From contig CM097883.1 in the NCBI GenBank assembly GCA_044892505.1, positions 119,412,001 to 119,476,000 of the forward strand: a stretch of 64,000 nucleotides of DNA. Reading direction: 5' to 3'. Positions 30,662 to 63,810 of the stretch are shown one piece after another. The notes under the pieces were generated by a model. That model was not told the DNA's origin and did not search any database. It saw nothing but the letters and a program-made list of their open reading frames with translations. The position numbers were made by a program, and so were the translations under genes. Position 1 is the first letter of the stretch, and each line of letters starts with the position of its first letter. The stretch is from Schmidtea nova (Eukaryota).

Positions 30662-30792
30662 ATGTTAGCATATTTTATTGTTATATTAAATAATATTATT
30701 ATATATTATTATTATTTATATCATTATTATTAAAATTAACGGGGCCGCCCAATCTTCCTAATTTTATCCTACGTCGCCGATCCTATAGGTCC

Positions 30793-31014
30793 TTATCAAT
30801 ATTTGTAAGGGTTTCCTCTTTCACATTCCACTTTAAACTAGTTCAGGACACGACCATATCAAAACTATCTACATTAATTTGCAAACGATGATTATACAAG
30901 GGACCGACATACATATCTTATAATGGCGCAATATTAAGGAATCAGGACTCACTTTTAAGTTTTGATATATGTTCAGATTCCTTGCTGTTCTGTCATGTAC
31001 CATTGTATGGCGGT
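30793..31014 (+). pseudogene. Ubiquitin-like domain (74 codons, one TGA at 30889) in frame with gag
   Basis: LSIFVRVSSFTFHFKLVQDTTISKLSTLICKR*LYKGPTYISYNGAILRNQDSLLSFDICSDSLLFCHVPLYGG aligns almost without gaps to ubiquitin. Confidence 0.85.
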
Positions 31015-31980
31015 GCACCATCAAGTATAAACAACGATAATGAATTCGATGATAAGAAGCCCAAACCTTTGCCAAAAAAGCCAAGAAATGTTCGAGGCGC
31101 TGCTTCTTCCGACAGTAACTGGAGACAAAATATTAATTGTCCGTTCTTTTTAGATGAGAACCAATCCCCATCTACTTGGTTGCTCACACTCGAAGCCCTG
31201 TTGGAAAGTTGCGGCGTTACATCTTCAAGAGATAAATTCTATAGAATATTATCTCTCATCCCACAGGAACATTTAGGTCGTCTTTCTGTTGTTATTCGCC
31301 GCACAACACAAAAAACCTTTTTAACTCCTTTTGAGGAACTCAGCACAGGACTGCTGGATTTATTTAAAGTTACTAAACAGGAAATATTCTCAAAATATTT
31401 CAAAGCCCAATCTTTAGGAAGTTGTAAGCCGACAGAATTTTTGCAGAAGGCTTTTACAAATCTCGAACAAATGCAAAATGGGACAGCACCGAACCAAAAT
31501 ATTCTACGCCAGTTCTTTTTAAGCGTACTTCCGACACATACACAACAAATCCTTGCTTTATCTTTTCCCGTAGATAAACACGAATTAGCAAACATGGCGG
31601 ACAAAATCGCAAGCCCGCCGATCCCATCATCAACAGAAAACGCCTTTCTTTGCGCCATTCGCGACCTTACAGATCGTATTTCACATTTGGAACGTCATAA
31701 ATCTCCGTCTTGAAATTCATCACTTTCCAATTCGTTTAACCGACGACGTTCCAAATCCCCGGCTTATTCAAACATTTGTTTTTATCACACCAAATATGGA
31801 ATGAAAGCAAATTGTTACAACATAGGATGTGGCTGGCGAAACAAATCAGCTACCCTCAAAATCATTGATAAGTGCATTTATCACGCACGATTTGGGGATA
31901 AAGCAAACAAATGCATTGTAAGTTGCAAATCCTACAATTCACCACAATCTTCTCCAAACAACAATCAAAAAGACTTGTAA
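31015..31980 (+). pseudogene. gag: gag with two tandem CxxH..C..C zinc knuckles; TGA at 31711
   Basis: Single frame from the UBL to TAA 31978-31980; CFYHTKYG..ANC...GC and CIYHARFG.KANKC...C. Confidence 0.88.
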
Positions 31981-34900
31981 TGCCATCACTCGTTGCGGTT
32001 GAAGTTGATGGCAAATTACCTCCTACACTCGATTTATTTTTAGTGAGAGCTGAATCCCCTTCTTTCAGTGTTGCTCCGAACTTTTGCAGTATTCTCGATT
32101 TTCTTGTTGACACAGGATCCAGTCTCTCCATTCTTCCTTTACAATATGAATCTCTTTGCAATGATTCCGTTTATACCTTGAAAGCCACCAACGGAACCAT
32201 GGTGAATACACACGGTTCTTTTTCAGCAAATTTCGTTCTTCCTTCTTTAAACAATCTTTTATATGAAAGTTCTGTGTCGCTGACGTTATCCATTCCATTC
32301 TTGGCTCAGACTTTTTGAGTTCACACAATTTGTTGGTCGATTGTCGTTCACGCCTTTTGAGAACACATTCGCACACAAATTCGTCTTTAGTCATTGACAC
32401 AAAAAAACTCAACATTTCCGACTCATCTGGCGTTTCTGTATCTACTGCCATTAAACCCAATTATCCAAAGATTGCTACAGACATTTTAAATAAATACACA
32501 TTTTCACAGACAATGCCTTTACGAAAGCAAGTCTCTGTAGCATCTTACTGCCATACTATCAACACCACAAACTCTCTTCCGGTACGTTGTAAAGTACGCC
32601 CTCTTTTGAACGAAAAACTAGATTTTGTTCGCTCCGAATTCGCTACTTTGTTGAACGAAGGCATTATAAAAAGATCTAAATCTCCATAGTCTTCACCACT
32701 TCATCTCGTACCAAAAAAAGATGGAACCTTTGGTAAACGACATTTTGTACAGACTTACTGAGGCCAAAATATTTTCAACTATCGACTTAATTAAGGCCTA
32801 TCATCAGATCCCTGTTAAAGAATCTGAAGTGGAAAAAACCCCTGTTTTAGCACCTATCGGACTTTTTGAGTACGTTTTCATGCCGTTTGGTCTTAGAAAT
32901 TCCGCTCAAACCTTTCAAAGACACATCGACCATATTTTAATGGATTTACCATTCGCAATTCCTTATATTGATAATATACTCATTGGTTCTAAGGACGCGG
33001 AAACACACAAGAAACATTTAGATGCAGTTCTTTGCGCACTTTCTTCCAATAACCTACAAATTAATTTAGATAAGTGTTTATTTTTTAAAGAAGAAGTCCA
33101 TTTTTAGGTCACATTATCTCGGGTCAAGGCGTCCGTCCACCATCTGACAGACTAGATACTGTATCTAAGTTTCCTCTTCCACAAACTGTTACTCAACTTC
33201 GGAGTTTTCTGGGAACAGTAAACTATTGCCACCGTTTTATTCCTAAATTTTCAGAAATTCTTTCACCTCTTTAAAGTTACTGTTCTAGACCAAAGAAATC
33301 TATAATTCCTTGGAACGATACTTCGTTGCTCGCTTTTGAGCATGCTAAAACAGCCCTTTCAAACATACAGACTTTGCATTATCTACGTGGAGATTTGCCT
33401 TTACGTTTAACCACAGACGCGTCAAACATAGCAATCGGTGCCGTTTTGCACCAGATAAACGGTTCCATCCCAGGGCCACTAGAATTTTATTCAAAGAAAC
33501 TTACCTCACCACAACAAAAATATTCAGCTTTTGACCGCGAACTTCTCGCTATTTTCCAGTCGGTTAAACATTTTAAGCATTTACTCGAGGGCCGTCTTTT
33601 TAGCATCCATACAGACCATAAGCCACTTGTTTATTTGTTCTCAATGAAAGACCCTTCTCCGAGGCAACAACGCTAGATTAGCTATATTAGCGAATTTTCT
33701 TGCCAAATATACCACATCGCCGGCAGTGATAACATTATAGCTGATTGCCTTTCACGAAATGTAAACGCAATTATCCACTGTCCTTTATTTTCTATCGACG
33801 AACTCCAAAATAATCCTCCAGATGCCATTGATATTTCGAAATTTGGCGCCAAACATAATCAAAGACAAAATTCACTACGACTCATCTCTTCCTGGCACTC
33901 TTCGCCCAATCTTGAATGACTCCTTGAGAAAACCGGCCTTTCTATCTGTCCACAACATACACCACCCAGGTTCCTCAAACACTTTTAATCTATTAAACAC
34001 GTGTGTAGTTTGGCCAAACATGAGACATGATGTTAAACTCTGGGTTGCACAATGCATAGGATGCCAACGTTTTAAAATAACTAAACACACTAAACCTCCT
34101 ATCATTCATTATCCAACTGGCAACCGTTTCGAAAACTTACACATTGACATCGTCGGCCCAATCCCAAGCGACTGTAATTTTTCTTACTTATTAACCATGA
34201 TCGACCGCAAGACTCGCTGGTTCGAAGTTATTCCTTTACGCACCATTTCTTCTAACTTTATCGCAACTTCGCTAATTCAAAATTGGATTTCACGATATGG
34301 AGTTTTTAAGTCAATCATCAGTGATCGCGGAACACAGTTTGAATCTAACTTATTTCAAGCTTTGACCGCTAAACTTTGGATACAACATCTTCGTACCATC
34401 GCATATCATCCACAAACAAATGATTTAGTCGAACGTTTCATCGTACTTTAAAAGCTTCTCTTGGAATTCTTTCTGAACAACAAGGTTGGACAAAGGTTCT
34501 ACCTTTCGTATTATTAGGTTGGCAAAATACACCTTCTAGGACTACAGGATCATCACCTGCTCAATTACTTTTCAGTACAAATACATCGTTACCCGGTCAA
34601 CTTGTCGACTTTGATAACTCTCCTACTTTGGAAGATCTCGCGATTGCTAGAGACCATTTTTTATCAATTGATACTAATCCTGAATTCTCTTCCGCGACCA
34701 TCTATAAGCCTTACATTCCAAAAACATTCGAAAATGCATCACACGTCTATATTAGAAATATAACTGGTGCAAGTTTAAAGCCAAGATATTCCGGACCTTA
34801 CAAGCTCGTCGAGATTAGAGAAAACAATGCGAAAGTGATTGTTAACGACTCTACACAAACATTTAACCTCTGCCGTCTTAAACCAGCTTTAGTTTTACTC

Positions 34901-35365
34901 GATGATGAACCTCCACCTGACAATTTCTCGACTCAAACCGATATAATCCAGAACTCTGACATAAACAATAAAGACCCTATCAATTCCACTGAGGACGATC
35001 TTTCCAACAACTCACCTTCATACCCGATTGTTCAAACATCAGACGCAGAAAACAAAACTACGGAAAACTTCGAATACGTACCGTTTATCCCAGAACCAAA
35101 TGACGTACTTCGTTTACCACCCATTTTGAAGAAAACAAATCAAACACCAAATAAACCAAAGTCCGTTACTTACAACAAATGGGTTCGTGTCCGTTCTATT
35201 AATCAAAAACCGGATTCACCAACCAGACTAATAAGAGTCTATTCAAATTATTTGCATCACTTGTCACCAATTTCTATTAGTCTTTTTCGGTTCCCTCAAT
35301 TTATTTCGAAATTCTTTCTCGGTTTCTTCCTTTACACTCGCAGCTTTTTCCCAGAATTTTTTTAG
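31970..35365 (+). pseudogene. pol: pol (PR-RT-RNaseH-IN), several frameshifts and stops plus an RT deletion near 32730
   Basis: Domain motifs across ORFs 31911-35365. Confidence 0.92.
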
Positions 35366-35629
35366 ACCTCTCAAAATACCATATGATTATACACTAAAAT
35401 TCTATATAGAGTATCTACATTATTGTATTTCAAAATGCGCTCCGCATCTTCCGACGGGGGCTGATGTAGTGGTCTAGAAGAATTGATATTAAAGCTTGTC
35501 TTAAAATATCAATGGAACATGGTCTGCTTCAAACTTCCACTCTATTCAGTGCTATTAGATTTTCAACAATTCATTTTAATGACGAATTAACTCCAAAAAC
35601 AATCAAATTGCTAATAATTGAAGCTATAG

Positions 35630-36400
35630 AATGGTCTTGAAATCATGTCTCAGAGTCCTAGCGTTACGCAGTAATGGATTACACAATGAAGCTGTTAAGC
35701 TTGCCTTATCAATTTGTCGATATCTTATTGGTCAACGTCCTCAAATCACTACACAATCTCGGCAAACCAAACCTATAGAGCCGACTACGCCGGCTAATCA
35801 GTCCTGTAGTTGTTGTCTGGATAATTTATCATCGATAGACTCTAAGTCAACTGCAATATCATCATTCAATTGCCTCCTTCAAAAATACTCCAACTGTACT
35901 GATATTACTGAAAATAGTAACGATTCTGAATGACAAACATGTGAGTTTTCTACCCCAGAATCCTTTATAAAATCGTCAGAAATTTCAACTACTGTTTTAA
36001 TGTCTTCCTCCACCGATTCATTAGTGTCTTCGCCACTTCCAACGAGTTATCCAAACATTAAAAATGTCACAATAAACTCAAATAAATCATTTTTTACCTC
36101 TACATGTTTTATGCAGTCGTGCTCGCCACTGTGGATGTCCTCGTCTAAACCTCCTTTACTTTCAACTAATGTGGAATATAGTCTCAATCCATCTGCATCG
36201 AAAATTTGCTCTCAAAGCGGTCCGAAATCCAATTTAATAGTAGAAACAACATTAGGACTACCAAACCGGCTTCCACAGTAACATGCGAAACAACATTCTC
36301 AATATTGACGCGTTTAATGTCGCCCTACTGAAAATGCAAGGCTGTGCAAAGAAAACTAGACCTGGCGTTATTAGCTTATGAGAAGGAAGAATCGAAGCTC
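35630..36400 (+). pseudogene. ZSWIM4/5/6-like fragment immediately after the PPT and TGTAGTG of copy B
   Basis: SCLRVLALRSNGLHNEAVKLALSICRYL versus recalled ZSWIM6 [28 protein letters not shown]; weaker LIVETTLGL match downstream. Confidence 0.55.
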
Positions 36401-36769
36401 ATCAGTTGCGAATATGTTCTACCATTGTTTCAGGAGAGTAATATGCGTCTGACTTTGTAAAGCCTGCTTTTATACTGCTGCTGAACACATGTTGCATGTG
36501 TTTTTATATTCTTGTATTGTTAAAGTAGAATATACCAATATTGGCTTTTATCTATCAATATTTGATATATGGATGAGCAAAGGGTTCTAAATATGATGAT
36601 AAATATAGGATGATACTCTCAGACAATAAAACAAATGTCGATAGCACAGTATTTTTTTAGTAATTTAAAATTTAAGGGGTTGCCCCACCAGTATCAGTAA
36701 TTGTCCGCCCATTGATTCATTCCTGGCGCCGGGCCCGAACACATCTCAAAGTGAAGCGAGATACTCGTA

Positions 36770-39379
36770 CCACTAAATGATCTAAACAAAAATAAAAGCA
36801 ACGTTAAAATCAACTGGAACAAACAACTAGAAAGTGTTTTTGAAAAAGCAAAAACAAATCTATCCAACACAAGTCTATTGAACTACCCCGACCCAAACTT
36901 AACATATATCCTCAACACTGATTGTTCTGGAAATGCAATGGGAGATACAATATACCAAGATAAACATAACGAAAAAAGACCCATTGCATTTTTCTCAAAA
37001 AAACTCAAAGCTCATCAAATGCGATATTCCACTTTTGACAAGGAACTGCTGGCGGTACACGACACAATAAAACACTTTCAATACCTCTTAGAAGGGAAAG
37101 AATTTGAAGTTTATACAGACCACAAACCCCTAGTAAACGCAATCAACATGAAATTGCCATTACCAAGACAAATACGGCAATTAAATTACATCTCACAATT
37201 TAATTGCGAAATCAAATAAATAGCAGGCGCAGCAAATATCTGTGCAGACATACTTTCACGAATCGAAACACAAACAAATGCAATCAGTATAATTCCGATA
37301 GTGAACCAAGAAGCTATGAAAAACAAACAAGAAATTACAATAAAAAAACTTCCCAAAATTGAACTCAATAGTGTTTAGAGAGATTGACGGAATCTGGTAC
37401 GACATATCCAATGAAAACATCAAAAGATTAATAGTACCCGAGAACCACAGAAACGAACTTATTCAACAGTTCCACAACATATACCACCCAGGAACAAAAG
37501 CCACATACGAACTCATACACACAAAAGTCGTATGGTCAAACATGAGAAAAGACATCAAAGAATTTGTCAACTCATGTTTAAATTGTCAGAAAAACAAAAT
37601 AACAAAAAGAATCAAAACACCAAAATTAAATTCCCAACATCCGAACCTTTCGAAACAGTCAACGTAGATCTAGTAGTACCACTTCCACCCAATAACAACT
37701 ACAAATACCAACTAACAATGATTGATCGGAAAACAAACTGGTTTGAAACAATACCAATCAAAGAAATCACCACTAAAACCGTCTGCGAAAACATAGAACT
37801 GAATTGGTTCGCAAGATACGGATGCCAAAAAACAATCATCAGCGACCAAGGCAGACAATTTGAATCCGATTTATTCAAAGGACTATGCACAAAATATAAA
37901 ATAAAAAAGTCAGAACAACATCATATAACCAACAGTCAAATGGCAAAGTAGAAAGACTTCACAGATCCTTAAAACAAGCGATACGGACTAAAGCTAATGA
38001 CAGAAACTGGTTAGAAAAACTGCCAGAAATACTAATCGGACAATGAAATAACCCATCTTCGATAAATAATAAAAGCCTTAGCCAACTAACTTTCGGACAT
38101 TCAACAAACCTCCCAAACTTAATAAAAAATATCGAAAACATTGGCAAAACATTCGAAGTCAAAGCACAAACAAAGAAAAACGAAATAAAAGAAGCTTTCG
38201 TAAATAGAAATGACAAACACAAACATTCAAAAACAAATCTCATCGTCGAGTCGGTATTAATAAAAAAACATTCACCAGCGGTTTCGAATCAAAATATGAA
38301 GGTCCCTACAAATTAATCAACCTGAATAAAAATGTGGGCACACTACTAATAAACAACAGGGAAATCAGAATCAATATTCGCAGATTAAAACTCTATCAAT
38401 ATAACAAACAAACAACACAAAACCAAATTAATAAAAAACCCCAACAACTTCCTAACAGAAATACAACAATTATACCAATACAAAACAAACGATACAGCGA
38501 CTGCCTCAAATTAAAACACCAACACACACAAGCAAAACACATGCACAAACAATGTTGGTTGTACAGTTTTTATTTTTTTTGTTAAATCGTTGTAAAACAA
38601 AAAACAAAGACAAAACAAAACAAATAAAATGGTTTTAGGTTAACTGTTAATGTTAAAATGTAAATTTTTAAAATTTTATTTGCATGTTAACCTCAGGTTC
38701 TAAAGGGGAAGTTGTGTAATGTTCACGATTTTGTGTGGTTATGCCCCTCCCCTTCGCTGTTAATTTTTATTTTTTATTTGTAATTAAATGTATAATTATT
38801 AAATTTCAAATTATGAATTTGAATAATTATAGTAAGCCAAATCACAAAATAAAAAAAATTGATTTTAAAATAATTTTATTATTTGTTCAAGAAACCAAGG
38901 AATATTAAAGAATATTAAATAACCCAAGAAAATATTAAAGAACAAGAGAATTTTAAAGAATATTAAAGAATATCAAAGAATCAAATATTAAAAAACCGAA
39001 GAATATTAAAGAATATTAAAAAACCCAAGAAAATATTAAAGAACCGAAGAATATTAAAGAATATTAAAGAACCAAATATTAAAGAACCAAAGAATATTAA
39101 AGAATATTAAAGAACCAAAGAACCAAATTAATCCGAACATTATTCCAAAACATTCCAATACCGTGAGTAGTCTTTGATTCGTTTTTCTTATTAAATAAAA
39201 TTTATAAACTAGTTAGTTTTGTTCGTTTGTTATCGTACACACACGCACCACATATATATCAAACACCCCAACTGTCCCAACAATAAGTTTTGGGAGACTC
39301 TTTTGGGCCCTTCAGTAATTTCCAGTACACAACAATATACCCATTGCATAACACAAACTAATAAAATACTACTATAATA
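36770..39379 (+). mobile_element. pol: Ty3/gypsy family 1, copy C: 5'-truncated (RNaseH-IN) plus 3' LTR 38713-39379
   Basis: LNTDCSG, YSTFDKELL, IISDQGRQF, closely parallel to copy D pol; PPT AAAGGGGAA at 38702-38710; LTR TG...TATAATA. Confidence 0.92.
38890..39125. repeat. AAGAATATTA-based minisatellite inside the copy C LTR
   Basis: Repeated AAAGAATATT and AAAGAACC units. Confidence 0.9.
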
Positions 39380-43458: not shown

Positions 43459-44279
43459 ATTTCATGTTTATTTTACGTTATTATTCGTTCAAGAGTTTGT
43501 AAGCGCCGTCATTACTATGGATGGTGCCTTCGCGGTCACCTGGCCCCCCCAGTTTTATTGTGGTTGATGATATTTATTTTTATCATTGTTATCATCTTAA
43601 TTATTTTTATTTAAAATTTGAATTTGGCTTACTATAGCAATTTGCTATAGTAAGCCAAATCACAAATAAAAGAATCAATAAATTTTATATAATTTCTCGT
43701 AATGGCTTTTACTAATTATTTATGATTACAATCAAACTAGATAGAAGAATAAACACTAATACTGAAAATTAAAAATCCCAATTACTATCAAAAAGAAAAT
43801 AGAAAAAGAGAATTCTACTATTTTACGATTTTTCAATTTTACAAGCTAAATTGTAAAGAAGCAAAGATTGCTGAAAGAAAATCCAAGCCAATTTTATTTA
43901 TACTGAAGATTTATCAAAGTTTATATAGTTTTCTAACTTACAATCTCCCTCGTCGACGGCTGCTAAATTGTAAAGAAGCTAAAAAAGAAAAACTTTTCAA
44001 GTAACCTTTCGTGGTTTTGCTATTTATCTGTTTATTAATAAATTTTGAGTAATTTAATAATTGTTCTGATTAATTTATTTGATTGCAACTTATATACTTT
44101 TTATATTTAATTGTTATTGTATTATCCTTGTAATCGCACTACATAGCACACACCCCGAGTGTCGGCACATAGTTAACGTCTGACTCTCTCGGGATCTACA
44201 ACTTTCTTACAACTCTTCTACACATTCACTCGTACAACAAATTAAAACTCAAATTGTAACAGCTCAAACAACTATAATA
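43459..44279 (+). repeat. 5' LTR of copy D (visible part)
   Basis: Matches 48920-49857 apart from a few substitutions and one 117-bp unit. Confidence 0.95.
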
Positions 44280-44281
44280 AC

Positions 44282-44293
44282 TGGTGTCAGAAG
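44282..44293 (+). promoter_or_regulatory. PBS TGGTGTCAGAAG (tRNA-Leu type)
   Basis: 2 nt after the LTR end. Confidence 0.88.
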
Positions 44294-44484
44294 GAAAAAA
44301 ACAGAACACTTAACTCAATTTTTTTTTTCAATCACTACGCCTTTTTAGAATAGCTATAGATAGAGCTATAAAGGATAGTTGACTCTGTTAGCCGAACACA
44401 GTAGGCTATATCCTTCAGTTAATCTCATTTTTTTTGCACATTTAAAAAAATAAAGAAACAAATCAACACTACACATAAAGACAA

Positions 44485-45543
44485 ATGGCATCGAACCAAC
44501 AAAATCTAACAAACAATCCCCAAACACACAACAACGAAACCATACCCAATCAACAAGAGAATACCAGCTATTTTTACACCCCTGAAAACCACCACACCAT
44601 AAATTCGATTATAAACCCCAAGGCAAACATTCCAAACTACTTTACAGATGAGAACGGCACACCCCAAAAATGGCTAGAGTTCTCAAAACTAACATTGACA
44701 CTGTCAGGAATCAAATCGACGAAAAGCTTATGCTCCCACATAATAGCCGCTCTTCCTAGCAATATTCTAAATGAAATTGCAGATCGAATCGACGAAATAG
44801 CGAATAGCGACGACCCATTTAACCTACTATACACAACCTTAGTAAATAGAAATAAGGTGAACAGGAGGGAGGTTTTGGAGTCTTGTCTAAAAGATATACA
44901 GCTTGGAAATGACAAACCAAGCGAATTTCTGCGAAATTTGAAAAGCAAACTGGAATTTTTGCAACCCAAAATCACAAGTGCGGGTCAAAATGATTTCGTG
45001 AAAGACCTATTCATGAGGGCAATGCCGCAAGAAATAAGACGCATCTTAGTGGCAAACGACTGCACAGACCTCGACAAAATAGCCGATATCGCGGACAAAA
45101 TTAATGACGAAATATTCCCAACAGTGTGTAGAACATACCGAAAACAACACCCGTGGGAAAACAAACAAGAAAACCGTCAAGAACGAGATAACCCAAACAA
45201 TGATACCAATCTACTGCTGAACTCGTTAATAAAAAAAGTTGACGAGGTCCTAACAGAAAACAAGAACCTCAGAAATGACTTACAATAGGCACAAGCGAGA
45301 GAAACCAAAAGAAACCAAATCAATCAAAACAACCGGTCAGAACAAAACCCTTACTTTAACCGTTACCAAAATAACCATAACAACCCAACAGAGCAAAAAC
45401 CAAATTTTAACCGATATAATAACCCAAACAACAGCTACATACAAAATGAAAATTGGTGTTATTTTCACAATAGATTTGGAGACAAGGCGTACAAGTGCAA
45501 CGCACCCTGCACTTTCAACAATAAAAAGCCGGAAAACATATAA
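44485..45543 (+). pseudogene. gag: gag, 352 codons with one in-frame TAG at 45286; single zinc knuckle WCYFHNRFGDKAYKCNAPC
   Basis: Frame continues past the TAG to TAA 45541; copy A has GAG at the same codon. Confidence 0.9.
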
Positions 45544-48500
45544 AGTCACCAAGGATCGCACCGACCATTGGTGACAGCCAAACATTCACGGTGCACAGCA
45601 ACGGTATTAACTTTCTCGTTGATACCGGTTCAATAATTTCCTTATTGCCGAACTACCTCTACAAAAACACAAAAACAGAAACCACAAGTTTATGTGCAGC
45701 AAACGGCAGCCCTATCAAAACATTAGGAAAACAAAACATCGACATTTCCGTCAATAATATAAAATACAAGTGGCATTTCACCATCGCAGAAGTGAAACAA
45801 GCCATATTAGGAGCAGATTTCCTCGCAAGATACAACTTACTAGTCGATTGTAAAAATGGGAAAATTATATCAAACAATTCAAATAACTCAACCACCAAAA
45901 GTAACCAATCAACAAAACAAACTAACTGCGACATTGGAGTGATAACAGCTCTACACGGCGAAATAAAAACGAATGAGCAGAAACTAAAATCAGAAAAAAA
46001 GGACGAACATATTCCTAATGAAATCATGAAACTGATACAAACAATGCCAAACATAACAAATAAACTACAAACAATTAGCGAAACTAAATGCATAACTGAA
46101 CACGCAATAATAAGCAATGGAAATCCTGTGCATGCAAAAGTCAGACAGTTGGACAAAAATAAACTCGAAATAACAAAGAAAATATTTGACGAATTATTAG
46201 AAAACCAAATCGTCAAACATTCTAATTCAAACTGGTCCTCAGCCCTCATGCTTAAAGAAAAAGCAAATGGTGAATGGCGTGCCTGTGGAGACTACAGAGC
46301 ACTGAACAGCATCACGACACCTGACAAATATCCAATTCCTATCATAAATGATATAATTAACCGATTCAACAAACCCAAACTCTTCAGCAAAATCGATTTG
46401 GAAAAAGCCTACCATCAAATACCCGTCAGAGCGGAAGACATAAAGAAAACAGCGATCATCACACCCTTAGGCCTCTATGAATACAACAGAATGCCTTTTG
46501 GTTTAAAAAACGCTGCGGCAACGTTTCAACGTTTTATGGACCAAATCCTGCGAAACCAACGAAATACAGTCGCTTACCTAGACGACATACTTATTGCGTC
46601 CACAACCAAATCGGAACACATCGAAAACATAAGAAATGTGTTGGAAATACTCAACAAACACGAACTAAAAATTAATACAAAAAAATGCCAATTTTTAAAA
46701 ACTGAAATACAATTCTTGGGTCACTTGTTGAATGAATCGGGAACAAGACCACTAGAAGACAAGATAAAAGCAATAAAAAACTATCCATTACCCAAAACAA
46801 CAAAAGAACTAAGACGATTCCTGGGGATGATCAACTTTTATCACAAATACATACCAAAATGTAGCGAAATGTTAGCCCCTCTCAACGAATTAAACAAAAT
46901 AAAGAGAAATATTAAAATAAATTGGAACGAAAATCTAATAATAGCATTTGAACAAGCAAAGGAAAATCTGAAAAACGCAAGCATCCTAAGCTACCCTAAT
47001 CAGGAATTACCATACATAGTCAACACAGATTGTTCAGGACTAGCAATGGGAGGTACCATATTCCAAGAGGAAAACAATGAAAAACGACCCATAGCATTCT
47101 TTTCAAAAAAATTGAAAACGCATCAAATGAGATACTCTACCTTCGACAGGGAGTTATTAGCGTTACACGACACGATCAAGCACTTTCAATACCTATTGGA
47201 AGGTAAAGAATTCGAGGTTTATACCGATCATAAACCCCTAATAAATGCAATGAATATGAGAAATCCTTCACCGAGACAAATACGACAATTGAATTATATT
47301 TCACAATTCAATTGTAAAATTAATTACATAGCAGGATCAGCTAATATAAGTGCAGACGCATTATCAAGAATCGAGACTGATATCAACGCACTAAACATAC
47401 CACCAATCATAGAGTTAGAAAATCTAAAAACTATACAAAAACAAAACATAACAGAGTCTCCGAGGATGAACTCGCTCAAATTGGAAGAAATAGACGGAAT
47501 CTGGTACGACACTTCAAACGACAATAATAAAAGAATCATTGTACCGCCTAAATTACGCGAACAGTACCTACAGAAATATCACAACCTTTACCACCCAGGA
47601 AACAAAGCCACATATGAACTTTTGCATACCAAAGTAATCTGGCCTTATATGAGAAGGGACGTAAAAACCTTCGTTAGAAACTGCCCACAGTGCCAAAAGA
47701 ACAAAATAACGAAAAAACAATTTAAAACAACGGTGGTACAATTTCCAAGTTCGGAACCTTTCGAAACAATACACCTCGACATAGTCGGACCTCTACCACC
47801 CAATAACAAACACAAGTATTTGTTAACAATAATAGATCGCAAAACAAACTGGTTTGAAGCCATACCCATAAAGGAAATATCCGCAGCAAAGATTTGCAAC
47901 AAATTAGAACTTAATTGGTTCGCACGGTATGGTTGCCCAAAAACAATAATCAGCGATCAAGGTAGACAATTTGAATCCGACATTTTTAAAGGACTGTGTA
48001 ATAAATATAACATTAAGAAAAACAGAACAACAGCGTATAACCCCCAATCAAACGGAAAAGTGGAAAGATTACACCGATCTATAAAACAAGCAATCAGAAC
48101 AAAAACGAACAATAACGATAACTGGTTGGGAAAATTACCAGAAATTTTGATAGGATTGCGCAACAACCCTTCAAGTTCAAACAACAAAAGTCCTAGCCAA
48201 TTGGTATTTGGACACAACACAAACCTGCCAAACTTAAAAGACGAAACAGAAAACAAGGTTGAGGCAAACTACGAATTCAACGAACCACAAATCACCAAAC
48301 TAAAAAACACCCTGAAAAACAAAAACAGTCAACAAACACAAAACCAAACCAGACTAATAATAGACAAAGTCTTAATAAAGAAACCTTTCACAAGTGGTTT
48401 CGAAACAAAATACGAAGGTCCATACAAATTACTAAATTTGTACAAAAACGTCGGCACAATCGTAAAAGACAACAAGTCAATTAAAATAAACATACGCCGA

Positions 48501-48686
48501 TTAAAACCATTTTATGAAAACAAACTAACACCATCCAACATTGACCACAACCAAAACCCTCCAGACAAAACCCCAACAAAACAAAAACACATCTCATTCA
48601 ACTCCAAAAACTCAATAAGACTATTCGACAAGGGCACAGTGAGCACACCCCTATACAAAAAACGATATAGCGAATGCCTCAAATAA
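45525..48686 (+). CDS. pol: pol polyprotein (PR-RT-RNaseH-IN), intact, in the -1 frame relative to gag
   Basis: FLVDTG; YLDDIL; TDCSG; HHCC and DDE integrase; YEGPY. Open from 45525, overlapping the gag end. Confidence 0.97.
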   Translation, partial: KAGKHIKSPRIAPTIGDSQTFTVHSNGINFLVDTGSIISLLPNYLYKNTKTETTSLCAANGSPIKTLGKQNIDISVNNIKYKWHFTIAEVKQAILGADFLARYNLLVDCKNGKIISNNSNNSTTKSNQSTKQTNCDIGVITALHGEIKTNEQKLKSEKKDEHIPNEIMKLIQTMPNITNKLQTISETKCITEHAIISNGNPVHAKVRQLDKNKLEITKKIFDELLENQIVKHSNSNWSSALMLKEKANGEWRACGDYRALNSITTPDKYPIPIINDIINRFNKPKLFSKIDLEKAYHQIPVRAEDIKKTAIITPLGLYEYNRMPFGLKNAAATFQRFMDQILRNQRNTVAYLDDILIASTTKSEHIENIRNVLEILNKHELKINTKKCQFLKTEIQFLGHLLNESGTRPLEDKIKAIKNYPLPKTTKELRRFLGMINFYHKYIPKCSEMLAPLNELNKIKRNIKINWNENLIIAFEQAKENLKNASILSYPNQELPYIVNTDCSGLAMGGTIFQEENNEKRPIAFFSKKLKTHQMRYSTFDRELLALHDTIKHFQYLLEGKEFEVYTDHKPLINAMNMRNPSPRQIRQLNYISQFNCKINYIAGSANISADALSRIETDINALNIPPIIELENLKTIQKQNITESPRMNSLKLEEIDGIWYDTSNDNNKRIIVPPKLREQYLQKYHNLYHPGNKATYELLHTKVIWPYMRRDVKTFVRNCPQCQKNKITKKQFKTTVVQFPSSEPFETIHLDIVGPLPPNNKHKYLLTIIDRKTNWFEAIPIKEISAAKICNKLELNWFARYGCPKTIISDQGRQFESDIFKGLCNKYNIKKNRTTAYNPQSNGKVERLHRSIKQAIRTKTNNNDNWLGKLPEILIGLRNNPSSSNNKSPSQLVFGHNTNLPNLKDETENKVEANYEFNEPQITKLKNTLKNKNSQQTQNQTRLIIDKVLIKKPFTSGFETKYEGPYKLLNLYKNVGTIVKDNKSIKINIRRLKPFYENKLTPSNIDHNQNPPDKTPTKQKHISFNSKNSIRLFDKGTVSTPLYKKRYSECLK

Positions 48687-48905
48687 AATACATAAACATA
48701 CACAAGCAAACACAGGCACAACATAGCTAAATGTACAGTTTTTAGTCTTTTGTAAATATGTAAATGTTATGGTTAAGACGTTATAAACAACAAAACAAAT
48801 ACAAAAACAAAACAAAATAAAACAAAACAACAAAAACAAGTTGTCAACATGGTTAATCTGTTAATTTTTATGTTCTTGTTAACCTCCGGTTTTAAAGGGG
48901 GAAGT

Positions 48906-49857
48906 TATGTGGATGTCTTATTTCATGTTTATTTCACGTTATTATTCGTTCAAGAGTTTGTAAGCGCCGTCATTACTATGGATGGTGCCTTCGCGGTCAC
49001 CTGGGCCCCCCAGTTTTATTGTGGTTGATGATATTTATTTTTATCATTGTTATCATCTTAATTATTTTTATTTAAAATTTGAATTTGGCTTACTATAGCA
49101 ATTTGCTATAGTAAGCCAAATCACAAATAAAAGAATCAATAAATTTTATATAATTTCTCGTAATGGCTTTTACTAATTATTTATGATTACAATCAAACTA
49201 GATAGAAGAATAAACACTAATACTGAAAATTAAAAATCCCAATTACTATCAAAAAGAAAATAGAAAAAGAGAATTCTACTATTTTACGATTTTTCAATTT
49301 TACAAGCTAAATTGTAAAGAAGCAAAGATTGCTGAAAGAAAATCCAAGCCAATTTTATTTATACAGAAGATTTATCAAAGTTTATACAGTTTTACAACTT
49401 ACAACCTCCCTGGTCAACGGCTGCTAAATTGTAAAGAAGCAAAGATTGCTGAAAGAAAATTCAAGCCAATTTTATTTATACTGAAGATTTATCAAAGTTT
49501 ATATAGTTTTCTAACTTACAATCTCCCTCGTCGACGGCTGCTAAATTGTAAAGAAGCTAAAAAAGAAAAACTTTTCAAGTAACCTTTCGTGGTTTTGCTA
49601 TTTATCTGTTTATTAATAAATTTTGAGTAATTTAATAATTGTTCTGATTAATTTATTTGATTGCAACTTATATACTTTTTATATTTAATTGCTATTGTAT
49701 TATCCTTGTAATCGCACTACATAGCACACACCCCGAGTGTCGGCACATAGTTAACGTCTGACTCTCTCGGGATCTACAACTTTCTTACAACTCTTCTACA
49801 CATTCACTCGTACAACAAATTAAAACTCAAATTGTAACAGCTCAAACAACTATAATA
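48906..49857 (+). repeat. 3' LTR of copy D, 952 bp, TAT...ATA termini
   Basis: Follows the PPT plus GT; identity with the 5' LTR ends at TATAATA. Confidence 0.93.
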
Positions 49858-56114: not shown

Positions 56115-58960
56115 CTGGGGGTTGGTGGTTCCTATATAAATAACTAAGACAAAAAGACTCTTGTTTATAAAGTTTATTCAAATAACAAAATTTACCAATT
56201 ACAAATTACAAAATTGTCCACGACTTTAAAATCTTTCTATTACAAACTCTTTCAGATTTTGAGATCCTTTAAATTTTGTACAGATTTCAAAAGTTAGCAA
56301 TCTTTAAAAATATTTAACTTTTCTTGTTTAGCCAACTGGCTTATTTTAAACGCTCTTTAGGATTTGTACCTAAGAGAGCTATTGCGCTAAGTTTAGAAAT
56401 TTTATGGCAATTTTACTGAATTGCCTTTCTCTTTTATATTAAAATTGGGCATGCAAATTACAACTGCTGACATTTATATTATTTTGACATTTTTCAAATG
56501 TATAATACATTGCATGCATAAATAATATTGAATATGTAACCTTTCAATGACGAGAAAATTTATAATTAATACGTTAAAAAAAAATTTATAAAATAAATTC
56601 TTATAACCAATTTTAATTAATTATAATTAAAAGTATTTTATACTTTACCGAAATTGTCGTAAATCCGATTAAATTTCCCAATTCTTCTATTGTAAATAAT
56701 TATTTCCTGGCTTGCTAATGGAAAAAGTATATACAAAATTTTCAACTATACATTCCTAGCTTGACATTTATAAGCAGATTTTTCAATATCAGTGCTTTCT
56801 ATCGACACCGGTTCATCACTCACATTTCGGAGAATTTCCAACTGATCATTGCCGATGATTCTGGAGATAACTGGCCGCTCATCATAATGTCAAATGTCAT
56901 ATATATTCCACAAATGTTTTCTCATTGCAAGTCTTTCGAGAAATACTTTCATTTAACAAACTGATTTGCACAAGTTCCTATTTTTTGTATGACTATAAAA
57001 TATACATTCTCTATTCCTCATGTCGACATTATTTCTTAAATGTCAATATCGATAATAATAATTAACTACGGTATAAAAAATAAAAATTAAATAAATACGG
57101 TAACTATATTTATAAAAATAAAATAAATACGCTAACTGCATTCCTCAACTATACTTCATAAAAATAAAATAAAATTTAATATCAGAATATAAAGTTTAAT
57201 AGTTACGAGAATATAAAGTTCAATGTATGAGTCACAAATAGTTAAATGATGATCACAATGAATTGTTCTTGAATTGATTGATCTTTTGGGTTTGGTAGTT
57301 GAAGCTGACAGACAATGATGTTGATCACAAAGATTGATAAAGTGAATTAGGGTTTATAGTTATTTTTCAAAAGGGATTTCGGATGATTTGATTAAAATGA
57401 TTGAAACGGACGATTGGGGCGGACAATTGATGCTTTGAATGATTGAGATTGAGATGATTTGATCGGGATTATTTAGATAGATATTGCGACTGATGATTGG
57501 AACGGATAATTGATTTTTTGGGATTGAGATGCTTGGGACTTGATTGGGGTTTATTTTTCTAGGTAGATATTTATTCTGTATCTATTGTTGCCGATATAAT
57601 AATACTTATTGACTTTGAATGTTCTTATGAGTCTTCCCTCGTCATCCAACACAGGTATCCTCCTATACACTAAACACGAGGGCCATCCATACAGAAATGG
57701 CCATACGTAGCTTCCACTTAAAACTACGATTTTATCCTTTCTTTCACATTCGATTTCAGTGAGACTCAATTCACGTCTCTGTCCCTATTCGACTAAGCTG
57801 ATTTCATTTTTGCCCAATGGGGGCACTCGAAGAGTGTAAGTCTCTTCCACCTTCACTCTAACTTTATTTTCTGTTATTGTATTTATATTGGGAAATTATC
57901 TCTTTCCTTTCTCAAATTGGGCAATTAAAATCATTCCCATTGTCGAATTATTATTGCTATTCTACATATAATAGCTTTTGTCGGAGAGCATAATTTTCGA
58001 CTACACTTTCCCTTTCAAGGTGGATTTCCGCTTCAATAGTCATTTACAGCCAATTAGCGTCGATCGTTTTTCTCAAAAGGAATTCAACGAGAATTTTATA
58101 TGGTAATTCGAAACGAAATTTCAGTTCTCTCCGTGATTGGAGTTTTTCATAGATCTTCGATCGAGTTTTAACATAATGTTTCAGTATTTCATCCCATAAC
58201 CATTGTAATCATGCTTACTCTTGTGGAAACTTGGTCAAAAGTTTCCGTTAGATCAAAGGCAGGTGTGGTGACATAATTAATATGTAAATAAATATTACAT
58301 TTATAATATTTATATTTATATTAAATATATATTTTATTATTAAAAAAGAAAAAAAACTTTTGTTTGTATTATGTAAATATTTGAAAAATAAACGACATCT
58401 TGATTTAGTTAATTTTGTTAATTTAGTTAATTAGTTAATTTAGTTAATCATTCTTTATGTTTTCCCTAAATGATTATAAAGTATTTTGTGAAGATAACAA
58501 CCTTAACAATAAAGTGGAAAATTGCAATGATAATCATGAATTAAATCCCGACAATATTAATAAAGACATAAAATACAGCATTTTGACAAGTCTTCTCCTA
58601 AACTTTGAATTTCATACTGAAATGCGAGTTAAATTGCTAGCTTTGATAAATTCGAACCAATAACTGAAGATATTCTTCCAAAGGAAACTTGCTCAAAAAT
58701 TACTGATTTGGAATTCATTTGCAAAGATTCCTTATTTGAAGCATTAATTCATGCAATTGTTACAAATAGATCTAATAAATGATGAACAGACCGATATGTT
58801 GAGCAGCCATGCTGAGTTTTTCACCAATTATAACGAGAGGTGCGATAATTATAACAAAAGCAGTAGTTCATGCCTAAGTACAGCTACCTTATTCAATGAG
58901 ATCACACAAAGGGTACCCCCTTTGACATTCATTTGCAGTGATATTAAATATCAAATCGGA

Positions 58961-59122
58961 AAACATCCAAAGATAATTTCCCAGCCTGCTGGCCGCTATT
59001 AAACACAACGATTTAGAAAAACTCAATGTCCAACTGTTGGGCGAATAATATACTCCCTAACGATACATGGTCGGACTAACGAGGGAAGAATCGAGGCAAA
59101 CAAGAATATGATGGTAAGAGTC
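58961..59122 (+). pseudogene. RPS5: 40S ribosomal protein S5 (uS7) fragment abutting the PBS
   Basis: KHPKIISQPAGRY*TQRFRKTQCPTVGRIIYSLTIHGRTN versus recalled [40 protein letters not shown]. Confidence 0.8.
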
Positions 59123-59132
59123 AATACCACAA

Positions 59133-59150
59133 TGGTGTCAGAAGTAGGAT
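59133..59150 (+). promoter_or_regulatory. PBS TGGTGTCAGAAGTAGGAT (17/18 match to the tRNA-Leu CAA 3' end)
   Basis: 1 nt after ...ACCACA; recalled tRNA complement TGGTGTCAGAAGTGGGAT. Confidence 0.9.
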
Positions 59151-59311
59151 GTGATCTATATTATATATTTATATTTAAAAAATCATATATTTATATTTTT
59201 TCACAAATACTAATCACCACATTTTCCCCCTCCCCAGTGCGTGTCATTTTACCTCCCCCGTTACTGAAAGAGCCTCATTATTTTCCTGTCCTCGCCGAGG
59301 CTACAGCGCAA

Positions 59312-59524
59312 ATGCGAGACTTCGCACGCAACCTATCCCACACATTTCCACTTTCTCTAACCTTGCACGATTTAGAACGCTTTATTTGCTCTATTTGGCA
59401 CTTGAAATTAAACACTTTCTATTTCTCACACATAGGTTTTAGCGTAGTGAACGATGGGGAACCATTAGCCAAGGTATTACCGCCGGGAGGAGTTGTATAC
59501 GTGACATTTAGATTACGTGGAGGC
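59312..59524 (+). CDS. Ubiquitin-like domain (71 aa, Met start, ends RLRGG) fused to Gag
   Basis: MRDFARNLSHTFPL...TLHDLERFI...FYFSHIG..VNDGEPL...VYVTFRLRGG followed directly by the Gag Met at 59525. Confidence 0.85.
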
Positions 59525-60535
59525 ATGAATGAGAGTGATCCCACCACCACCTTACCACCTCTATCACCTGATGCCTCAAATCCTCATATTTCCACTTTAT
59601 CGGCAGGCAGTACGAGTATCAACACCTCTACAACCCCCAATATTTTCACGCTATTTTTTAGATGTAAACGGATCACCGAATGCCTGGTTATTTATCCTCG
59701 AACGATCCTTCCACACCAGAAACATCGCGACTTCACAGTAAAAGTTCGACCAGCTTGTCTCGTCTCTCCCCACCGAACTACTTTCCAAGCTCGCACATCT
59801 CTTACCAAACCTTTTTACCGATGTTGATCCTTTTACTTCCCTTTAAAAAGCCATAATCAATAACTTCAGGGAACCAAAAGCAGAAATATTTAGTAAATAT
59901 TTCAAGACCCAACACCTAGGTTCCCAACGACCATCCGAATTCCTGAAGCAAGCCATAGACAACCTAAAATCGCTATAGCAAGGCATTACTCAAGATGACG
60001 CTATTCTTCGTCGCTTTTCTTTTTTGCCTTGCCTCAACAAACACAAGCCATCTTAGCGGTTTCCAACTCCACTTCGCTCACCGATATCGCCAATATGGCC
60101 GATAAATTAGCCGAGGTTTCTCGTCAGCCAAATACAGGTTTCTACAACCAAACATCGGTAACAACACCCATGAAAACTCCAGTTTCTACGGACCATTCTT
60201 TTACTCCTCTCTTATTGGCAATCGAAAATCTCACCAGAAAAGTTCAGAAGCTGGAGACAAGGTCTACATCAGCGGACCGAAGGCGACCGAGATCTACGTC
60301 GCGTGACAACACCCGTGATAAAAGTCCCTGGATATGTTATTATCATCAGAAGTTTGGAGTTTCCGCACAGTTGCCAGATCGGGTGTAATTATAGAAATGA
60401 GAAGGCGGATTGCAAACAGATAGACCTCTGCATATATCACGGCAAGTTCAAGAAAATGGCCAAACGCTGTCTAGAAGGTTGCAGGTTCTTCCAAACTTTT
60501 CAAGAACCCAAAGACAACAAACAATCAAAAACTAG
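59525..60535 (+). pseudogene. gag: gag, frameshifted, with two zinc knuckles
   Basis: EIFSKYFKTQHLGS.RPSEFL (copy B: EIFSKYFKAQSLGS.KPTEFL); CYYHQKFG..C..GC and CIYHGKFKKMAKRCLEGC. Confidence 0.88.
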
Positions 60536-63500
60536 TACTGCCATCGTTTCATGCGGCTGAAGTCGATGGTCATCTCAATTCATCTTTTTCCTCTCCCTTT
60601 TTTATTTCTTTTTTTCTCAATCACCTTCATTTCTTAATTATTCACAGAAAACGATGACTTGTCTAGTGGATACAGGTTAGAGCATTTCTCTCTTACCTCT
60701 CAAATGTATAGCTACACAAAGCAACACACGATTCCGTTTAAAAGCAGCTAATGGAGCTTTTATGAGCACGCGTGGAACCACCAAAGTACAGTTCACCCTA
60801 AGCGACATCAACAAAACCTTCGTTTGGATTTTTAGCATCGCTGACGTACCATATCCAATTCTGGGCATCGATTTTTTTGAAAATAATAATATCATTATCG
60901 ATTGCAACAAGCGCTCTCTCCGTCATCGATCGCAATATTAATTCCACGTCTTTAAATAACATTTTTAATCAAACTCCCAAATGCAATACAGTCTCTATCG
61001 ATTTATTCACGAGCTTTGTTGACAAACTCATCACGAATAGAATTTTCAACGATAACTTCACTTCTATGACAGGATCTTTAGATCAAAGGTTCTATCATCA
61101 AATCCTTACTCTGAATTCACCGCCACTCAGAGAGAGAGAGAGAGTGCACTCGATCTCTGGAGAAAAATTGACATTTCTGAAGACAGAATATGATGAGTTG
61201 TTAAAAGCAGGAGTGATCCAAAGATCTTCTTCACCTTGGTCCTCCCCGATCCATTTCGTCCCTAAGAAAGACGGATCTTTCAGGATATGTGGTGACTACC
61301 GTCCTTTAAATACCGTCACACAGCACGACTCATATCCAATGCCTCTTATAAAGGATTCGTTAGCCAGATTCACAGGTAACAAAATATTCTCTACGATCGA
61401 TCTGGCGAAGGCATACCACCAAATTCCTGTCGCTCCATCTGACGTGCAAAAAACAGCTGTCATCACTCCTATAGGTCTCTTCGAATTCCTGCAAATGCCT
61501 TTTGGTTTAAGGAACGCTGCACAAACATTCCAGCGACACATCGATCACATATTATCCGGACTAGATTATGTAGTAGCCTACGTCGACGACACCTTAGTCA
61601 CATCGCCCGATGCCGAAACACATAAACAACATCTATCTGGACTCATTAAAACCTTAGAGCAACATCAACTCAAGACAAATCATTCCAAATGTCAATTCTT
61701 TCAAACAAGTGTAAAATTTCTGGGACACACCTTATCCACCGATGGAATAGCTCCACAAACTGAACGCTTAAATTCCATCAGAAATTTTTCTAAACCGGAA
61801 ACTGTAACGCAGCTTCGCAGCTTTTTAGGCGTAGTCAATTATTGCCACAGGTTCATACCTAGGATATCTGATATTCTTGCTCCTCTGACTTCGCTCAGCT
61901 CGGGATCAAAGCGATCTGTTATAAAATGGACAGATAAATCTGACGCTGCATTCATCGAAGCAAAAAAAGCACTAGAATCAATTCAGACTTTGGCTTATCC
62001 AAAGTATTCCATACCTTTCAGTCTGACCACAGATGCATCCGACGTCGCAGTTGGTGCTGTGCTAACACAGGAAAAAGACGGTATAGTTCGACCTCTTGAA
62101 TTCTTTTTTAAGAAGTTAACCGAAACGCAAACCAAATATTCCGCGTTCGCTCGGGAACTTTTAGCCATATTTCTGTCTATTAGACATTTCAAACATTTGA
62201 TTGAAGGTAGATCCACTACGGTTTACACTGATCACAAGCCGTTGGTTCATATAACTACTATGAAGGATCCCTCTCCTAAGCAGTTACGTCAAATTTCTTT
62301 CATCACCGAGTTCACAAGTGACATCAGACACATAGCGGGTAAAGAGAACATTTTAGCTGATTTTCTCTCACGAAGTGCCAACGCTGTCTCCTTGGAACCC
62401 CTGTTTACAAGTTCCACTCTGCGAGAGAATAAACCAACCAAAGCTGATCTACAATATTTCCAACATCACAAATCAAACGTAGACGGCATTGATTTTAACT
62501 CATCACTTTCAGGAACTCTTAGACCTATTCTTGGATCCGAACTTCGAAAACAGGCATTCCGTGCAGTTCATGACTTACATCACCCTGGCTCGACCGCCAC
62601 CTATCCGCTGCTAAGAAACCAAGTCGTCTGGCCCTTTATGAGACGAGATACTAAAACATGGGTTAGTTAGTGTTTGAAATGCCAATCAAACAAAGTCACT
62701 CAACACGTTAAACCACCGCACATGCACTTTCCAACAGGCAATCGATTTGATGTCGTTCACATCGATCTTGTCGGACCTTTGCCAATAGACAATGGTTTTT
62801 CGTATCTTATAACAATGATAGACAGGAAGACAAGATGGTGTGAAGCAGTTCCTCTACGTTCTGTCTCAGCAAACATAGTAGCTGAATCTTTCATTTCGGA
62901 ATGGGTTTCACGATATGGCGATCCCAGACAAATTATTACCGACAGAGGAGTGTAATTCGAATCAAAGCTCTTTACTTCTTTATCGGAACAGGTTGGCATC
63001 GAACGACTGCGTTCGACTGCATATCATCCGCAGACGAATGGCCTCATCGAGAGATTTCACCGGACACTCAAGCAGTCACTACGTATACTCTCTCTAAACT
63101 ATCGCTGGACAAAAGCTTTGCCTTTTGTGCTATTGGGTTGGAGAAACACACCATCCAAGACAACCGAATCGTCTCCAGCTCAATTACTCTTCGGTACAAA
63201 CACTACAGTTCCCAACGAGCTCATCGACATCGGGGAACAACCAACGATCGAACAACTCAATACCGCCAGACGTCATTTCCTTGAAATTGATAGCAATCCA
63301 ATGTTTTCGTCAGCAAACGCCGAAAAACCTTTTATACCGAAATCTATATCTTCTGCTAAACACGTATGGATTCGTGCTATCAATGATTCTGCTTTAAAGC
63401 CTAGATATACTGGACCATTTCGACTACTACGTATAGTCGGGAACTATGCAACAGTCGACATTAACAGTTCATCCGAAACAATCTCTCTCACATGTATTAA

Positions 63501-63810
63501 ACCGGCATTCGGACTTTCGGAATTCCTCGATCCCAGCACTAGAGAGCTTGTCCCTGCTTCTACAAACAGTTCAGCACAGACCAATAAAACATCTGTCAAT
63601 TCGAGATCACCACTAACCCTTTCAGACGTGGATTCAACTCTCCCTACACCGATCGTGCTTACTGAAAATACTTGTTCGCACGAGGCAGACATATCTTCTG
63701 CGGATATAATCAATGAGCTTTCTAGTTCTGATGGCAAAAACACCACCGGTAGCCAGGAAACATACATTCACCGGCTAGCAACAAAACATCTAGACCACTT
63801 TCAATTTTGA
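60530..63810 (+). pseudogene. pol: pol (PR-RT-RNaseH-IN) with a few stops and frameshifts
   Basis: ORFs 60877-62670, 62674-62955 and 63118-63810 carry RT/RH/IN motifs; YTGPF. Confidence 0.93.

Follow-up and report, generated by a model that had tools for sequence, protein, structure and literature searches.

How does coding sequence of a host ribosomal protein come to lie inside the long terminal repeat (LTR) of a retrotransposon, in frame with the element's own Gag? The question is raised by a Ty3/gypsy element spanning about 6.7 kb whose 5' LTR begins at position 58264 of a 64,000-nucleotide stretch of Schmidtea nova DNA (here called the window; G000:C2:119412001-119476000 of an AT-rich, 1.25-Gb genome). 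An earlier note on this DNA had proposed that the LTR end was built from the host gene RPS5, encoding uS7, and is fused in frame to a ubiquitin-like domain (UBL) and Gag. We found that this first reading was too narrow: three related families, here named F1, F2 and F3, carry many interchangeable host pieces, RPS5 among them. Our reading, to which we give a probability of roughly 0.6, is that in F1, the family of the window element, and in its two relatives the downstream part of the LTR contains host mRNA pieces in frame with UBL-Gag, which are spliced in every case with a located host gene; that the pieces were captured by template switching and survive when in frame; and that a deubiquitinase is predicted to cut at the glycine pair (GG) that ends the UBL.

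The RPS5 piece lies within a true LTR

The segment bounded by TGTGGT...ACCACA, described earlier as having LTR-type termini, proved to be a genuine LTR. A DNA search of the genome (BLAST) revealed its 3' twin just past the window, at the equivalent of positions 64078-64962, with 96% identity by BLAST; in an ungapped comparison of the pair, 849 of 867 positions are identical. The twin is preceded by a G-rich polypurine tract (PPT) and followed by GCAGG, the same target-site duplication (TSD) found at 58259-58263. Paired LTRs, inverted termini and TSD, all features of Ty3/gypsy elements, are thus present. The element comprises the following features, all on the plus strand.

58259..58263 (+): target-site duplication, 5 bp, GCAGG; second copy beyond the window, after the 3' LTR
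58264..59131 (+): 5' LTR, family F1, subfamily A; 3' twin at G000:C2:119476078-119476962
58264..58456 (+): AT-rich non-coding head, probably U3/promoter; first ~70-90 bases common to subfamilies B and D
58457..58942 (+): leader piece X, an ATG-led frame of ~160 codons, which in sister copies continues in frame into the RPS5 piece
58943..59125 (+): piece derived from host RPS5 (uS7) mRNA; exon-2 part 58943-59103, then a short exon-3 start
59126..59131 (+): LTR terminus ACCACA, inverse of the TGTGGT start
59132..59150 (+): 1-base spacer and 18-nt primer-binding site (PBS), together making an in-frame ATG
59132..59299 (+): open linker from the PBS to the ubiquitin-like domain
59300..59524 (+): ubiquitin-like beta-grasp domain with likeness to ISG15, ending RLRGG
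59525..60560 (+): Gag, DUF7041 capsid-like, frameshifted in the window copy; double CX2HX9CX3C in sister copies
60600..63810 (+): pol with protease, reverse transcriptase, RNase H and integrase; stops in the window copy

The end of the LTR matched uS7/RPS5 chains with an E value of 9e-10 (the stretch being read with the letter X at the stop), and 58943-59103 aligns to a host RPS5 gene (L031), one of two that bear introns; in older LTR subfamilies the RPS5 piece is spliced. A genome-wide DNA search for F1 LTR copies gave 582 first-look candidates, of which 40 were scored and 30 fetched; 16 of the 30 fetched loci are solo LTRs with their own 5-bp TSD. An assembly chimera is ruled out, since the 3' LTR and these solo LTRs have the same junction. 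The same holds for an insertion into an RPS5 pseudogene, because the exon-3 part occurs in only two intron-bearing RPS5 genes and one LTR. With a significant uS7 match and a recurrent junction, the proposal that the terminal repeat itself was built from host-gene sequence is borne out.

RPS5 codons had also been read almost up to the PBS. The piece does extend to 59125; the quoted likeness of NMMVRV to KLMTVRI, by contrast, is partly coincidence, as the host reads KIKANNIIKHAF there and the MV of the window's NMMVRV is the start of host exon 3, brought up by an in-frame deletion already found in an older subfamily, B'. From 59003 onward the frame continues without a stop across the PBS and UBL and enters gag, as first noted. 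The LTR upstream of the RPS5 piece is not ordinary LTR sequence either, as the frame of X runs there from 58457 to ~58942. In the window copy this leader is disrupted by deletions near 58634 and 58764, found in both LTRs, and by a stop at 59000-59002.

Host pieces were exchanged serially in F1

A Pfam search for uS7 brought up older types of F1 LTR. Type D carries spliced PTB sequence over several exons. In types C and B, about 55 bases of RPS5 5' untranslated region (UTR), the ATG and spliced coding sequence stand ahead of a remnant of PTB RRM3; in type B' the RPS5 piece has the in-frame deletion mentioned above; and in type A, the type of the window, PTB is gone and X has been added in front. 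The order of capture seen in F1 is therefore nested: PTB, then RPS5, then X. Judged from these sequences, each new capture appears to have replaced the 5' part of the preceding one. Because types A and B have RPS5 changes in common, the alignments point to one RPS5 capture behind both. In two type A loci (L067 and L068), a single frame runs from the LTR ATG through X, RPS5, PBS and UBL into gag. Among the 30 F1 elements fetched, 13 allowed the distance from PBS to GG to be measured, and it kept the frame in 7 of them.

Two related families carry further host leaders

The family F2, found with distant UBL-Gag proteins as query (P0002 and P0004), has a pol 70% identical to that of F1 and is young: most of its LTR pairs are 97.6-100% alike, and many copies have open gag frames and pol frames of 1148 codons. 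Its LTRs share one head (124 exact matches) but carry at least eight different leaders. For four of these an intron-bearing host gene was located (PP2A-A, SAM50, MCM8 and a FERM protein), with introns lost in the leader. Together with RPS5 and PTB, the introns of the parent gene are precisely lost in all six located donors. The F2 LTR pieces from PP2A-A, SAM50 and FERM are 98-99% like the host (98.8% for the PP2A-A leader).

For F3, whose pol pieces are 59-64% identical to those of F1 and F2, 159 candidates were obtained and 20 upstream regions fetched, with a readable PBS in 16 at first pass. Seven F3 leaders were scanned with Pfam: acid phosphatase (histidine phosphatase), NOMO1 and PCMT scored above the cut-off, a tetraspanin below it, and three were blank; these F3 donors are named by Pfam only. 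By eye, several F3 leaders start with signal-peptide-like stretches. Individual leaders have been amplified, with 164 candidates for PCMT, 417 for the PTB tail and 30 for SAM50. The window itself holds a decayed F3 copy (~30.6-36.3 kb; 29690-36270) with a long open linker, a UBL ending PLYGG, a CHCC-type gag and pol; its 3' LTR, near 35465-36270, has a leader of the type found at L294, to which no donor was assigned.

Several F2 loci are unusual in structure. One element (L119, G000:C2:250844000-250853900) is flanked on both sides by the TSD GAGCA and has different leaders in its two LTRs (MDV in the 5', PP2A in the 3'), a mismatch that suggests intermolecular strand transfer or later conversion. 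In the 5' LTR of L120, an old word resembling a PBS and then a second tail come after the PP2A leader, still in frame, the LTR boundary having been extended by recombination. Tandem F2 arrays in which neighbours share LTRs lie at G000:C3:136378000-136392000, C3:1965000-1985000 and C2:37211000-37221000. Several copies among L156-L173 are frameshifted or altered in sequence right at the PBS, which may reflect faulty transfer of the plus strand where the PBS is duplicated.

A related gypsy element in the window, at 43459-49722, served as control. It has no UBL, is young (LTRs 99% alike, a 1053-codon pol frame), shares the start of its PBS, and is related in pol (39-47% identity). Its LTR is riddled with stops and its gag has its own ATG (n = 1). 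A further gypsy pol fragment, at 36738-38585, is 72-77% alike to this element.

Searches for the remaining donors

The donor of X was sought in several ways. Protein searches for longer and near lengths and an Atlas search were blank; a genome protein search gave 150 matches (80-100% identity), none of which was a distinct donor; and in two short DNA searches all 60 loci were LTR copies. TRAP-delta was considered as donor, gave only a weak Pfam match (E = 0.07) and was rejected. Four F2 leaders are without a donor: the search run for the MDV leader gave only matches of 75-81%, to a dispersed repeat, and none was made for the MNEV, MASS and L250 leaders. For PCMT, no intron-bearing host copy was identified among the 40 candidates scored out of 164. 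The names PTB and SAM50 were both tentative at first; the former was confirmed by later searches, the latter by an Omp85 match 19 kb downstream on the same strand. As donors of the PTB tail, hnRNP-L-like genes were tested and ruled out. An F3 leader beginning MDQKIF (L284) looks claudin-like, an assignment that was not confirmed.

The LTR head was also considered as an RPS5 promoter and rejected, as the likeness to the host gene ends ~55 bases upstream of the ATG. Both RPS5 paralogues have a conserved stretch of ~240 bases lying ~750-1000 bases upstream (L031:366-610; L038, oriented, 169-410), for which Rfam gave no match.

The reading frame into Gag is kept across donors

The earlier note had given the in-frame fusion a chance of 1 in 3 by itself. 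The frame is real, and its recurrence across donors goes far beyond that figure. The donor frame is kept into PBS, UBL and Gag at all 13 traced 3' junctions (PTB; RPS5 in types B, C and A; PP2A short and long; SAM50; MCM8; FERM; phosphatase; NOMO1; PCMT; tetraspanin-like), for which chance would be (1/3)^13 = 6e-7 if unbiased; the 13/13 is, however, inflated, as F2 and F3 donors were spotted in Gag-frame translations.

Of 122 F2 LTR heads, 106 could be scored, the other 16 being truncated or without a recognisable start or end. The LTR was open from its ATG to its end in 101 of the 106, the exceptions being L134, L153, both LTRs of L162, and L175, and the deletions seen in several F2 LTRs are multiples of three. 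In subfamily A of F1, 18 of 56 distinct full-length LTRs were fully open (not-full-length loci, 16 of 60 in that fetch, were dropped). Their coding part (684 bases) showed 33 indel events, 29 of them private, two in pairs and two in at least three copies, one in frame and one a +1 change. In the head (201 bases), 15 of 43 indels occurred in at least three copies, 11 of them frameshift-sized, compared with the one frameshifting indel of the coding part; the head is repeat-rich and an imperfect control.

The residues of the leader are less constrained. For the RPS5 piece, the ratio of nonsynonymous to synonymous substitution rates (dN/dS) was 0.34-0.48 vs 0.03 between the host paralogues, and fixed differences between types A and B fell at codon positions 1, 2 and 3 in numbers of 8/5/11 (P = 0.14), vs 3/6/15 in gag (P = 0.003). 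These comparisons indicate that the RPS5 residues drift and are weakly held; the frame is kept.

In addition to the biased discovery of F2 and F3 donors and the quality of the head as a control, several observations count against our reading. Copies of an element are not independent, and neither are the two LTRs of one element. The stretch from PBS to GG is open in 33 of 47 F2 elements and broken in 14, and the +1 indel named above is common to three A copies. An in-frame ATG stands where the LTR meets the PBS in F1 and F2, and likewise in most of the F3 copies seen, and further methionines occur before or inside the UBL; because of these starts, Gag may do without the leader. Of 28 B-type copies, only 18 retain the RPS5 ATG. 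In the window element the two LTRs have a pair of frameshifts in common, with stops in X, and those of L162 have a stop in common; unless help came in trans, the parents of these two elements were therefore mobile with a disrupted leader. The junction of a PTB deletion in L216 is out of frame, a coding-like stretch in L296 seems to lie outside the Gag frame, the MCM8 leader is taken from the interior of the donor and not from its 5' end (in frame at both ends), and the donor of X was not found in the searches made. Taken together, the constraint on the frame is strong, and the leader may not be required.

Primer-binding site, ubiquitin-like domain and Gag

The PBS of the window element pairs, apart from one mismatch, with the 3' end of a host tRNA gene that lies in an array; a PBS of this kind and a PPT ahead of the 3' LTR are both Ty3/gypsy features. 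From its anticodon loop we read the gene as an intron-bearing tRNA-Leu(CAA), a call that ARAGORN did not make. A pattern search gave 813 matches genome-wide, most of those listed lying in one tandem array (L281, G000:C2:300510000 onward) in which tRNA-Gln, tRNA-Gly and the intron-bearing tRNA matching the PBS recur with a period of ~900 bases.

The UBL matched ISG15 weakly by sequence (E = 0.05), and ISG15 was also the best Foldseek match (E = 7e-5) of its predicted structure (pLDDT 75). A beta-grasp fold, as predicted here, with a C-terminal GG is characteristic of ubiquitin-like processing signals. F1, F2 and F3 retain the GG, as do the distant P0002/P0004, in UBLs that are only 33% alike, and no methionine follows it in F2, F3 and P0004. 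P0002 and P0004 are annotated as starting at the UBL; a metagenome scan gave one short gag contig. The Gag motif CX2HX9CX3C is doubled in an F1 sister copy and in F2, and pol of the window element has the order protease, reverse transcriptase, RNase H, integrase.

A proposed route of capture and its alternatives

Since introns are lost in all six located donors, the template of capture was RNA. In LTR replication as established, the minus strand is begun at the PBS and extended as far as the template's 5' end before it jumps. We consider it likely that reverse transcriptase switches to a packaged host mRNA during synthesis of this minus-strand strong-stop DNA, which would place the 5' part of the mRNA between LTR head and LTR terminus and then copy it into both LTRs. 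In five of the six located donors the piece begins ~35-115 bases upstream of the donor ATG, in the 5' UTR, as would follow if strong-stop synthesis ended at the 5' end of the RNA copied. Short words are shared at several junctions, as judged by eye. In-frame leaders, if translated, would survive as Gag would still be made, and selection would act on the frame and not on the residues. A host deubiquitinase is predicted to cut at the GG and free Gag, which would make any leader disposable. A bolder version, which we hold tentatively and would not yet bet on, is that, once a cleavable UBL tag had freed the N terminus of Gag, this clade of autonomous elements made its LTR a diversity cassette and now steals the start codon and 5' portion of host mRNAs for use as translation leaders and disguise, so that each theft can found a subfamily.

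The broken leaders in both LTRs of two elements, the in-frame ATG at the PBS, the loss of the RPS5 ATG in 10 of 28 copies, the annotation of P0002/P0004 from the UBL onward and the drift of residues would all suit a simpler account, in which template switching put host pieces into the LTR without benefit, Gag is made from the PBS ATG or a later methionine, and in-frame pieces were kept only since out-of-frame host AUGs would divert ribosomes. A purely neutral cassette should often be lost, however, whereas no leaderless LTR type was seen among the 122 F2 LTR heads (16 unscored), and many different leaders have each been amplified, as the candidate numbers for PCMT, the PTB tail and SAM50 show. 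We regard this tolerated accident as unlikely, though it is the alternative that deserves most weight. The fast serial turnover from PTB to RPS5 to X, the presence of at least eight leader types in a family whose LTR pairs are mostly 97.6-100% alike, and the mostly housekeeping nature of the identified donors could instead reflect camouflage or gain of promoter signals: essential-gene sequence over most of the LTR would escape silencing by PIWI-interacting RNAs, or lend start or 5' UTR signals, with the open frame as a side constraint. Housekeeping mRNAs are also simply the most abundant templates, though, and the constant head and all internal sequence stay targetable, which leaves this explanation improbable.

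It is hard to credit that the leader peptides themselves act, with cleaved N-terminal host fragments (PP2A-A HEAT repeats, signal peptides, FERM) targeting or modulating the particle or the host. The near-identity of the PP2A-A, SAM50 and FERM pieces to the host, the signal-peptide-like starts of several F3 leaders and a dN/dS below 1 would fit such a role, but high identity reflects youth, the donors are functionally unrelated and cut mid-domain, in-frame deletions have spread, and 13 of the 24 fixed differences in RPS5 lie at codon positions 1-2. Capture by template switching with survival of in-frame leaders is the reading we prefer, and it has consequences beyond this locus. It suggests why a retrotransposon keeps a ubiquitin-like GG tag. 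Many donors dated by LTR pairs form a natural series for testing strong-stop switching and the shielding of elements from silencing by host sequence. Behind LTR heads, the genome now holds hundreds of host-gene fragments that start with an ATG; they are raw material for new genes or for small-RNA cross-talk with essential genes and, for annotation, a trap of false RPS5, PTB and PP2A paralogues.

Comparison with known systems

A review places captured open reading frames between the LTRs (PMC6431247, in the passages cited here), and the LTR passages of PMC11410931 mention no LTRs of the present kind. A search of open-licence papers in PubMed Central and bioRxiv gave no description of such an arrangement; reports in Repbase and the supplements of papers, which lie outside that search, may bear on novelty. 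Within the literature searched, we consider the element a previously undescribed variant of LTR gene capture.

As judged from sequence features, the window element is a Ty3/gypsy element that is CsRn1-like in its Gag motif and differs from the CsRn1 clade in PBS and TSD. According to the sections of PMC2582038 used, the clade has the CX2HX9CX3C motif and the pol order of F1 in common, but its PBS matches tRNA-Trp, whereas that of F1 matches the tRNA gene read as Leu(CAA). The TSD is 4 bp there (PwRn1) vs 5 bp here (16 of 30 loci and the window pair), and the doubled Gag motif and the N-terminal UBL belong to the present elements. The planarian gypsy element Burro/GYPSM1, as far as described in the passages cited of PMC6431247, likewise combines a ubiquitin/SUMO-like domain with host-like cargo. 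It exceeds 30 kb and has its UBL deep in the polyprotein, whereas the elements described here measure 6.5-7.5 kb, carry their cargo in the LTR and have the UBL ahead of Gag.

A host gene within an LTR is also found in Cassandra terminal-repeat retrotransposons in miniature, which carry 5S rDNA (bioRxiv 10.1101/2023.07.14.548913, in part). There, one fixed, non-coding promoter gene is carried by non-autonomous plant elements, while here many spliced coding pieces are carried by coding animal elements; Rfam found no match in L001, so there is no 5S rRNA-derived core, and the pieces are coding mRNA. The closest parallel for the predicted processing comes from pestiviruses, where ubiquitin inserts of cytopathic strains, such as the S27a-ubiquitin of bovine viral diarrhea virus (BVDV) CP Rit, have host coding sequence upstream of ubiquitin and are cut by host hydrolases at the ubiquitin C terminus, which leaves the following protein with a clean N terminus (PMC8310069, passages cited). 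The element is predicted to work like these inserts. That system is an RNA virus with sporadic, true ubiquitin; here a divergent, long-resident UBL occurs in a retrotransposon clade, the variable part lies in the LTR, and cleavage is predicted.

LTR-mediated retroposition, as described in the passages cited of Tan et al. (2016, PMC5131818), resembles the present case in its spliced, partial host mRNAs and in multi-gene chimeras that are often in frame with the parent protein; it proceeds by template switching at short shared words, as may the captures described here. There, however, the captured sequence replaces internal open reading frames and the products are non-autonomous, whereas here the pieces lie in both LTRs and in solo LTRs too, F2 keeps intact gag and pol, the reading frame continues into the UBL-Gag of the element itself, and the cassette has been swapped repeatedly. 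LTR gene capture has been described elsewhere as internal and crippling; in these elements it takes place in the repeat itself, in copies with intact genes, and has been renewed repeatedly.
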